The notes under the pieces were generated by a model. The model was not told the DNA's origin and ran no database searches. It was given only the letters and a program-made list of their open reading frames with translations. Source: Candidatus Odinarchaeia archaeon (GTDB lineage Archaea; Asgardarchaeota; Odinarchaeia; Odinarchaeales; Odinarchaeaceae). From it: 12,553 nucleotides of DNA. Where the stretch lies: positions 1-12,553 of the forward strand of contig JAHQXC010000036.1 in the NCBI GenBank assembly GCA_029856525.1, read 5' to 3'. Both the position numbers and the translations under genes were made by a program. Every line of letters starts with the position of its first letter. The stretch's first letter is position 1. Positions 3,916 to 4,200 of this stretch are shown here, in pieces.

Positions 3916-4200
3916 TTATTTTAAAACAATAAGAATATAGTCTTCCTCTTGGGCTACATGAACTTCGCCTTTCGAAGTATTTATAGTTAGGAATTTAAGC
4001 TCCCCTTCCTCTAACTCTTTTACAGTAGATCTGGCTTTTCCTACAAGCGATGTTACTAAAGCAGCTGTTTTCTCAGTTTTCTCCCGGTCTAATGTTGTAC
4101 TTATCGGTAAGCCTTCAGTCGTAGTTATAATCACACCTCTTACTCCTTCAAATCTTTGCAGATTTTTAAGTATTGGTTGAATATCTTTTTCCCCTATCAT
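3916..4200 (-). CDS. Dynein light chain roadblock (DYNLRB1/2)-like protein
   Basis: 94 aa, short roadblock lacking the C-terminal helix. [13 protein letters not shown]...EGLPI.TTLD, KARSTV and LKFLTI...KGEVHVA..EDYILIV align to recalled human DYNLRB1 at about 38 identities over about 88 positions by hand. GAGGT lies upstream of the ATG. Confidence 0.82.

Follow-up and report, generated by a model that had tools for sequence, protein, structure and literature searches.

What does a roadblock protein of the dynein type do in an archaeon in whose genome no dynein gene is matched above threshold? The question is raised by the window, i.e., the whole 12,553-nt stretch of DNA analyzed here from a Candidatus Odinarchaeia archaeon, in which a short roadblock gene (RBLC7) opens a run of minus-strand genes. 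The gene and the motifs preceding it are as follows.

Positions 3916 to 4200, minus strand: RBLC7, a 94-aa short roadblock of the DYNLRB orthologue group
Positions 4207 to 4211, minus strand: GAGGT, a Shine-Dalgarno-like motif 6 nt upstream of the RBLC7 ATG, as read from the sequence
Positions 4249 to 4260, minus strand: CCGTTAAATAAT, a candidate BRE/TATA-like element 49–60 nt upstream of the RBLC7 ATG

RBLC7 is encoded by a single open reading frame of 94 codons with an ATG start, and the ORF listing places the motif GKARSTV at residues 54–60. The product matches the Pfam family Robl_LC7 (PF03259) with 75.7 bits against a cut-off of 23 (E = 2.4e-21), the match extending over residues 10–93 of the protein and positions 5–89 of the 91-position profile. 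Since the match reaches residue 93, RBLC7 ends with the domain and lacks a C-terminal helix. The gene is the 5′-most member of a co-oriented minus-strand run from position 4200 to 524, in which five genes are separated by short gaps. The divergent intergenic region at 4201–4413 contains AT-rich short inverted repeats and a recurring ACGGTTTAATA promoter-like motif. The CCGTTAAATAAT sequence resembles the ACGGTTTAATA motif situated before the neighboring RB114 gene, and it may serve RBLC7 as a BRE/TATA-like element.

Searches with the protein lead to the dynein roadblock chains. The best match in the PDB is 7F8F_A (94 aa), which is identical at 93 of 94 positions, the sole difference being L37 here and I in 7F8F. 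It is followed by roadblock chains of human, fly, Chlamydomonas, and other dyneins with E values of 1e-19 to 1e-11; human DYNLRB1, for instance, is found with an E value of 7e-19, RBLC7 aligning to residues 3–91 of this 96-aa protein. The first roadblock that is neither identical nor part of dynein has an E value of 2.9e-5. A HMMER search of 1.84 billion representatives returned 498 proteins at E values up to 0.001, with Asgard orthologues ranked first and eukaryotic DYNLRB (e.g., of sea urchin and fish) ranked next. When a profile of 27 Asgard RBLC7 orthologues was searched against the PDB, DYNLRB1 was matched at 3e-24, ahead of the next roadblock (1e-7) and of LAMTOR2 (0.03), and neither MglB nor LAMTOR4/5 was among the matches. 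As measured by these comparisons, the similarity of RBLC7 to DYNLRB is far beyond chance.

Identity values and phylogeny point the same way. RBLC7 shares 35 of 89 aligned residues with a fish DYNLRB and 34 of 87 with a DYNLRB2-like protein of sea urchin, and its identity to representatives of the eukaryote clade has a median of 39.7% (range 31–47, n = 28). Identity to the roadblocks encoded next to it is 23/93 for RB157 (25%), 22/77 for RB122 (29%), and 14/74 for RB114 (19%). In a quick tree of 100 rows, Asgard RBLC7 and the eukaryote DYNLRB form one clade (support of 90) apart from the RB114, RB157, and RB122 clades. In a more careful tree of 66 rows, Asgard RBLC7 plus DYNLRB is split off with support of 100/98 on a branch of length 1.17, the other side of the split being made up of RB122, RB157, RB114, and other roadblocks of the genome. 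Eukaryotic DYNLRB is monophyletic in this tree (100/99), and the Asgard RBLC7 sequences are unresolved around the eukaryotes, being monophyletic in only 8% of the bootstrap trees. A reciprocal search of the archaeal genome with the fish DYNLRB found RBLC7 as its sole match (E = 2.5e-15). Asgard RBLC7 and eukaryotic DYNLRB have 32 of 94 majority-consensus positions in common, a figure that can serve only as a proxy for conservation of the groove residues.

The likeness to DYNLRB1/2 (LC7, km23; PF03259) accordingly comprises length, architecture, identity of ~40%, the KARSTV motif, a reciprocal best match, and membership in one tree group. An earlier note, made from the letters of the window alone, had described the first gene of the cluster as a 94-aa DYNLRB-type roadblock that contains KARSTV and ends after the last strand, with ~40% identity to DYNLRB1 and greater distance from the adjacent roadblocks, and had proposed a roadblock phylogeny as a check. 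The ORF and Pfam results agree with that description, the median of 39.7% against 19–29% for the neighbors bears out the identity estimate, and the protein groups with DYNLRB at 100/98. The RBLC7 family is the closest prokaryotic relative of DYNLRB and probably its ancestor group, and the dynein roadblock chain was probably recruited from it by eukaryotes. At the level of the superfamily, recruitment of the dynein roadblock from GTPase-regulating roadblocks was reportedly suggested by Koonin and Aravind in 2000.

Part of this was known, as the earlier note had surmised in allowing that dynein-type Asgard roadblocks might already be reported. PDB entry 7F8F is Odin-RBLC7 of Odinarchaeota LCB_4 (OLS18093.1), described by Tran, Akil, Senju, and Robinson (Commun Biol 2024, PMC10933270). 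The structure was solved at 1.83 Å using the Drosophila dynein roadblock as the molecular replacement model, and it revealed a crystal homodimer without the third (C-terminal) helix of long roadblocks, which frees the face of the sheet where DYNLRB holds a helix of the dynein intermediate chain (PMC10933270). The authors, who set Odin-RBLC7 against the DLRB1-intermediate chain and LAMTOR complexes, proposed that it has a site for binding a helix; their paper gives no phylogeny, distribution, or gene context for the protein (PMC10933270). Judging from its sequence, RBLC7 is Odin-RBLC7, the same protein in a sister strain, and neither the gene nor its structure is new. What has been in print since 2024 includes the protein and its fold, its resemblance to the roadblock of dynein, and the suggestion that one face binds a helix.

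The source genome comprises 1.32 Mb in 127 contigs and is 93% complete. In dynein, DYNLRB clamps two helices of the intermediate chain next to the WD40 domains. Searches of the genome for the intermediate-chain motif (Dynein_IC2) and for WD40 gave no match, and no dynein heavy chain was found above threshold, DHC_N2 reaching only 17.9 bits against a cut-off of 31.9. Actin is present in the genome. RBLC7 thus differs from DYNLRB in that the defining dynein partner is missing from the genome at these thresholds, and it is a member of the DYNLRB sequence family outside any dynein complex. Since neither an intermediate chain, nor WD40, nor a heavy chain is matched above threshold, RBLC7 must therefore have another partner, and the earlier argument that some other ligand is needed where no dynein gene is in view has been extended by these searches from the window to the genome.

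Where might such a partner be sought? Three further roadblock genes lie close to RBLC7.

Positions 3374 to 3847, minus strand: RB157, an MglB-like full roadblock
Positions 3377 to 3418, minus strand: predicted tethered terminal helix of RB157 (aa 144–157), acidic and amphipathic, following a disordered linker
Positions 2980 to 3348, minus strand: RB122, a full roadblock whose nearest solved relative is Thor-RB (7F8M)
Positions 4414 to 4758, plus strand: RB114, a divergent full roadblock and conserved neighbor whose nearest solved relative is 9JQ8
Positions 4362 to 4377, plus strand: ACGGTTTAATATAAAT, a promoter-like motif 37 nt upstream of the RB114 ATG

RB157, RB122, and RB114 (157, 122, and 114 aa, respectively) each have a Robl_LC7 match followed by 19 to 59 residues after the domain. 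Between Asgard classes, RB157 is 57–77% identical. Its PDB matches include MglB, its match to the NCBIfam MglB family falls below the cut-off, and it passes the Pfam cut-off of MAPKK1_Int (LAMTOR3). The solved relatives of RB122 are 7F8M and chain D of 9JUE. Thor-RB (7F8M) was considered as the cluster orthologue of RB122 and rejected, the RB122 of the Thor cluster being a clear relative of it that is far from identical. The searched literature held no papers on 9JUE (a relative of RB157/RB122) or 9JQ8 (the relative of RB114). As for the motif before RB114, the genome contains 18 further 21-mers similar to ACGGTTTAATATAAAT (at most four mismatches), which is more than is seen for random 21-mers of similar A+T content, and ACGGTTTAATATAAAT looks like the local BRE/TATA consensus.

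Further along the window, SMC, ScpA, and ScpB (positions 6717–11539, minus strand) lie beside the roadblock cluster, as they do in most Asgard classes. Odin-type loci have them in a different strand arrangement from the Hermod, Frey, and Thor loci.

RBLC7 is widespread in the Asgard archaea. The family is present in 267 of the 301 genomes sampled, including 85 of the 90 high-quality ones, with orthologues in other classes being 50–77% identical, and it is missing from two families (0/5 and 0/7 genomes). These two families also lack RB157, and MglA-type GTPases are kept in both. Among the Asgard-specific core genes compiled by Liu et al. are three roadblock/longin families and two GTPase families. 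The gene neighborhood was compared in 37 related loci from species-level genomes of Odin, Hod, Heimdall, Hermod, Jord, Frey, and Thor, a set that leans toward close relatives because it was retrieved by peptide patterns from the query, and in six loci of further families.

The usual Asgard arrangement consists of a divergent RB114, followed by RBLC7, RB157, an MglA-type GTPase, and RB122 in that order. RB157 directly adjoins RBLC7 in all 37 related loci, and in 40 of 43 RBLC7 loci once those of the further families are included. RB122 is present in 30 of the 37 and lies downstream of the GTPase in most classes, while RB114 is found in 24, divergently oriented and often with SMC-ScpA-ScpB beyond it. 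In 25 of the 37 loci, RB157 and RB122 are separated by a gene of 185–200 codons, a small GTPase according to Pfam, and the GTPase is part of the cluster in two further families as well. The cluster GTPases match MglA of Thermus thermophilus (1.4e-32) and of Myxococcus (1e-28) in the PDB, with the next family at 5e-9. In the source genome, the orthologue (51% identity) lies outside the cluster at 6563–7135 of contig C96, so the link to the GTPase rests on other lineages. On that contig, it is followed by a gene for a 437-aa protein without a Pfam match, and genes for subunits of the membrane-bound hydrogenase/NADH-dehydrogenase type are nearby.

Of five further families, the full cluster is found in two, with undecaprenyl-diphosphate synthase next in line. 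In a third (f4), RBLC7 directly abuts the MglA-type GTPase (G026:C1, about 2300695–2301620), and in another (f9), it abuts an RB114-like gene. RB157 is located elsewhere in the genome in families f4, f9, and f21, and sampling of these five families ruled out the idea that RBLC7 and RB157 are an invariant pair. In one genome of family f5 (G004:C15, 2022–3431), RB157, RB122, and RB114 stand in a row beside SMC and undecaprenyl-diphosphate synthase, and RBLC7 was not detected in this genome. The genes that remain linked are drawn from one set of five, in combinations that vary from lineage to lineage, and the five can therefore be regarded as a functional module. No description of this roadblock-GTPase cluster was found in the searched literature.

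The reading preferred here, to which we assign a probability of roughly 60%, is that the RBLC7 dimer is a scaffold subunit within a multi-roadblock platform built around a small GTPase of the MglA type, with the MglB-like RB157 and the further roadblocks RB122 and RB114 as the other members. RBLC7 would be physically associated with RB157 and the GTPase and would hold a partner helix in its groove, and comparable assemblies would be MglB/MglC of Myxococcus or Ragulator, in which roadblock dimers are stacked. A precedent is MglC, a roadblock paralogue that binds MglB. The scaffold role is proposed because of gene context, and several features of that context count against it: the GTPase is outside the cluster in this genome, adjacency of RBLC7 and RB157 is not universal (the genes are unlinked in f4, f9, and f21), and in the f5 genome, RB157, RB122, and RB114 have stayed together although RBLC7 was not detected. 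Moreover, with SMC-ScpAB and undecaprenyl-diphosphate synthase nearby, part of the synteny may simply be inherited gene order.

If the whole neighborhood were of that kind, RBLC7 would act alone or with unlinked partners, and its position beside SMC-ScpAB would carry no functional meaning. SMC, ScpA, ScpB, and undecaprenyl-diphosphate synthase are indeed in the same conserved stretch, and in Asgard archaea, as stated for MK-D1, GTPase genes are generally found outside operons with roadblock genes (PMC10933270). However, the linked subsets differ between lineages (RBLC7-GTPase in f4, RBLC7-RB114 in f9, and RB114-RB122-RB157 in f5), linkage persists between classes whose orthologues are only 50–60% identical, and all five genes belong to one theme, i.e., a small GTPase and roadblock regulators. 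Inherited order is therefore judged quite unlikely as a full account.

The end of RB157 deserves a closer look. The AlphaFold model of this protein has a third helix at residues 105–128 and a terminal helix at 144–156, with a disordered linker (pLDDT 34) in between, and in the alignment, the tail is strongly conserved as E-E/D-L-K-A-A-L-G-E-L-E-K after a linker that varies. In Myxococcus, the allosteric pocket that receives the D/E-rich Ct-helix of MglB lies next to the last helix of MglA, which is rich in K/R, and the two features co-vary (Baranwal et al. 2019). The Asgard cluster GTPases likewise possess a K/R-rich, i.e., basic, last helix. In the f5 genome without a detectable RBLC7, the RB157 tail is shorter and divergent in sequence, and its acidic, amphipathic character is preserved. 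The tail is more economically explained as GTPase-directed because it matches the MglB Ct-helix, because the GTPase has the basic helix, and because it is kept where RBLC7 is not detected. By analogy, it probably corresponds to the Ct-helix of MglB, with the GTPase and not RBLC7 as its target.

This bears directly on the first candidate ligand of the earlier note, which was the C-terminal helix of RB157. In that scheme, the RBLC7 homodimer would capture the tethered helix in trans, in place of its own missing third helix, in the manner of the dynein intermediate chain on DYNLRB. It has in its favor that RB157 is the immediate downstream gene in those 40 of 43 loci, that the last 12–13 residues form a strongly conserved amphipathic helix behind a variable disordered linker, that RBLC7 and RB157 are absent together from two Asgard families, and that, in an MglB dimer bound to MglA, one of the two Ct-helices is left unengaged. 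The acidic tail nevertheless fits the published definition of the MglB Ct-helix, whose pocket lies beside the basic helix of MglA; the cluster GTPase carries just such a K/R-rich last helix; and the tail retains its acidic, amphipathic character without a detectable RBLC7. Capture in trans is thus rather unlikely, and the cognate GTPase is the likelier target of the tail.

Adjacency and joint loss would also be expected of an obligate short/long heterodimer of RBLC7 and RB157, asymmetric in the way of MglB and with one Ct-helix, in which case the crystal homodimer would represent the state in the absence of the partner. Eukaryotic roadblock pairs are heterodimers, as is the case for LAMTOR2/3, LAMTOR4/5, and LC7a/LC7b. 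The two MglB protomers act asymmetrically on MglA (PMC11016934). On the other hand, RBLC7 alone crystallizes as a homodimer, the two proteins are only 25% identical, and their genes are unlinked in three families. Such a heterodimer is rather unlikely.

The preferred reading of RBLC7 as a scaffold subunit invites comparison with two known systems. With MglA-MglB-MglC of Myxococcus and Thermus, the Asgard cluster shares an MglA-type GTPase, an MglB-like protein (RB157) with an acidic tethered Ct-helix, and extra roadblock paralogues, as MglC exists beside MglB. In contrast, RBLC7 itself has no MglB or MglC match at E values up to 1 in the PDB searches, the Asgard module has four roadblock genes where the Mgl system has two, and the GTPase is unlinked in the source genome.

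In Ragulator, LAMTOR2/3 (long) and LAMTOR4/5 (short) roadblock dimers are assembled on LAMTOR1 and act together with the Rag GTPases. The combination of short and long roadblocks with a small GTPase is common to both, and RB157 is above the cut-off of MAPKK1_Int (LAMTOR3). Differences from Ragulator include a weak match of RBLC7 to LAMTOR5 (PF16672) at 23.5 bits, below the cut-off of 27, and the lack of LAMTOR4/5 chains among the PDB matches of the Asgard RBLC7 profile mentioned above. Furthermore, the cluster GTPase is of the MglA type without a roadblock C-terminal domain, and no LAMTOR1-like wrapping protein is in view.

If RBLC7 does serve as proposed and its family gave rise to DYNLRB, the dynein roadblock chain would have a testable origin in a GTPase-regulating roadblock platform. 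Two elements of this were not found in the searched literature: that the likely source family of DYNLRB is a near-universal Asgard gene, and that RBLC7 keeps conserved company with three other roadblocks, one of them MglB-like and bearing a Ct-helix, and with a GTPase of the MglA type. This also narrows down to a handful the recombinant proteins that are worth assaying in combination.

The remainder of the run raises the question of whether the window contains a forerunner of dynein and dynactin, since two genes downstream of RB122 encode dynactin-like proteins.

Positions 2347 to 2889, minus strand: p25-like protein, a 180-aa left-handed beta-helix
Positions 1213 to 2343, minus strand: p62-like protein, 376 aa, with zinc-ribbon and beta-sandwich, resembling dynactin p62 (DCTN4) by fold search

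The p25-like protein scores 49 bits against Pfam DCTN5 (dynactin p25; cut-off of 40), and in the PDB, relatives of gamma-carbonic anhydrase (2e-23) rank ahead of DCTN5 (2.5e-11). The AlphaFold model of the p62-like protein is poor, with a pLDDT of 54.7 and values near 30 in the helix at 110–120, and its fold was assigned from the Foldseek ranking with the model geometry left aside. The four best Foldseek matches are dynactin subunit 4 chains, with alignments over the full length (E of about 1e-6), and a weak colinear sequence match supports the assignment. A homologue search found relatives of the p62-like protein only in Odinarchaeia. Across the 37 related loci and the six of further families, the pair follows RB122 in Odin-type loci only, and in other classes, this place is taken by undecaprenyl-diphosphate synthase. 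Because of this restriction, the juxtaposition of a DYNLRB-type gene and dynactin-like genes is regarded as derived and lineage-specific.

The second candidate ligand of the earlier note, the helix at aa ~110–128 of the p62-like protein, does not withstand this distribution: a helix confined to Odinarchaeia cannot be the general ligand of an RBLC7 that is found in 267 of 301 Asgard genomes. A dynein/dynactin precursor, in which the odinarchaeal RBLC7 would act with the p25-like and p62-like proteins (e.g., through that helix) as a primitive complex of the pointed-end type, would be in keeping with the five co-oriented genes and their short gaps, with a beta-helix protein above the DCTN5 cut-off, and with dynactin subunit 4 as the four best fold matches of the 376-aa protein. 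Such a precursor is nonetheless very unlikely. The pair is in place only in Odin-type loci, with undecaprenyl-diphosphate synthase there elsewhere; the p62-like protein is limited to Odinarchaeia, whereas RBLC7 is Asgard-wide and strongly conserved; and the model from which the helix is taken is poor (pLDDT 55, and near 30 for the helix). Moreover, we know of no contact between DYNLRB and p62 in eukaryotic dynein-dynactin.

The dynactin-like genes are better regarded as a late, Odin-specific addition to an older cluster, which tempers the reading of the window as a “dynein/dynactin precursor operon”. A physical bridge between the MglA/MglB-type switch and the p62-like/p25-like pair, formed in Odinarchaeia by the DYNLRB-type dimer, seems highly improbable. 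Were there such a bridge, a prokaryotic assembly of the ancestors of a dynein light chain and of the dynactin pointed end would have existed before any dynein motor.

Some variation on the RBLC7 theme was seen outside the window. One of the five further families possesses two tandem, strongly diverged RBLC7-like paralogues (G258:C1, 669768–670421) that are 28–31% identical to RBLC7 of the window, and these could be a heterodimer pair like LC7a/LC7b. In the metagenomic proteins P0177 and P0130, an RBLC7-like domain is fused to zinc-ribbon domains, and a third metagenomic protein, P0104 (1149 aa), contains nine roadblock-like stretches.
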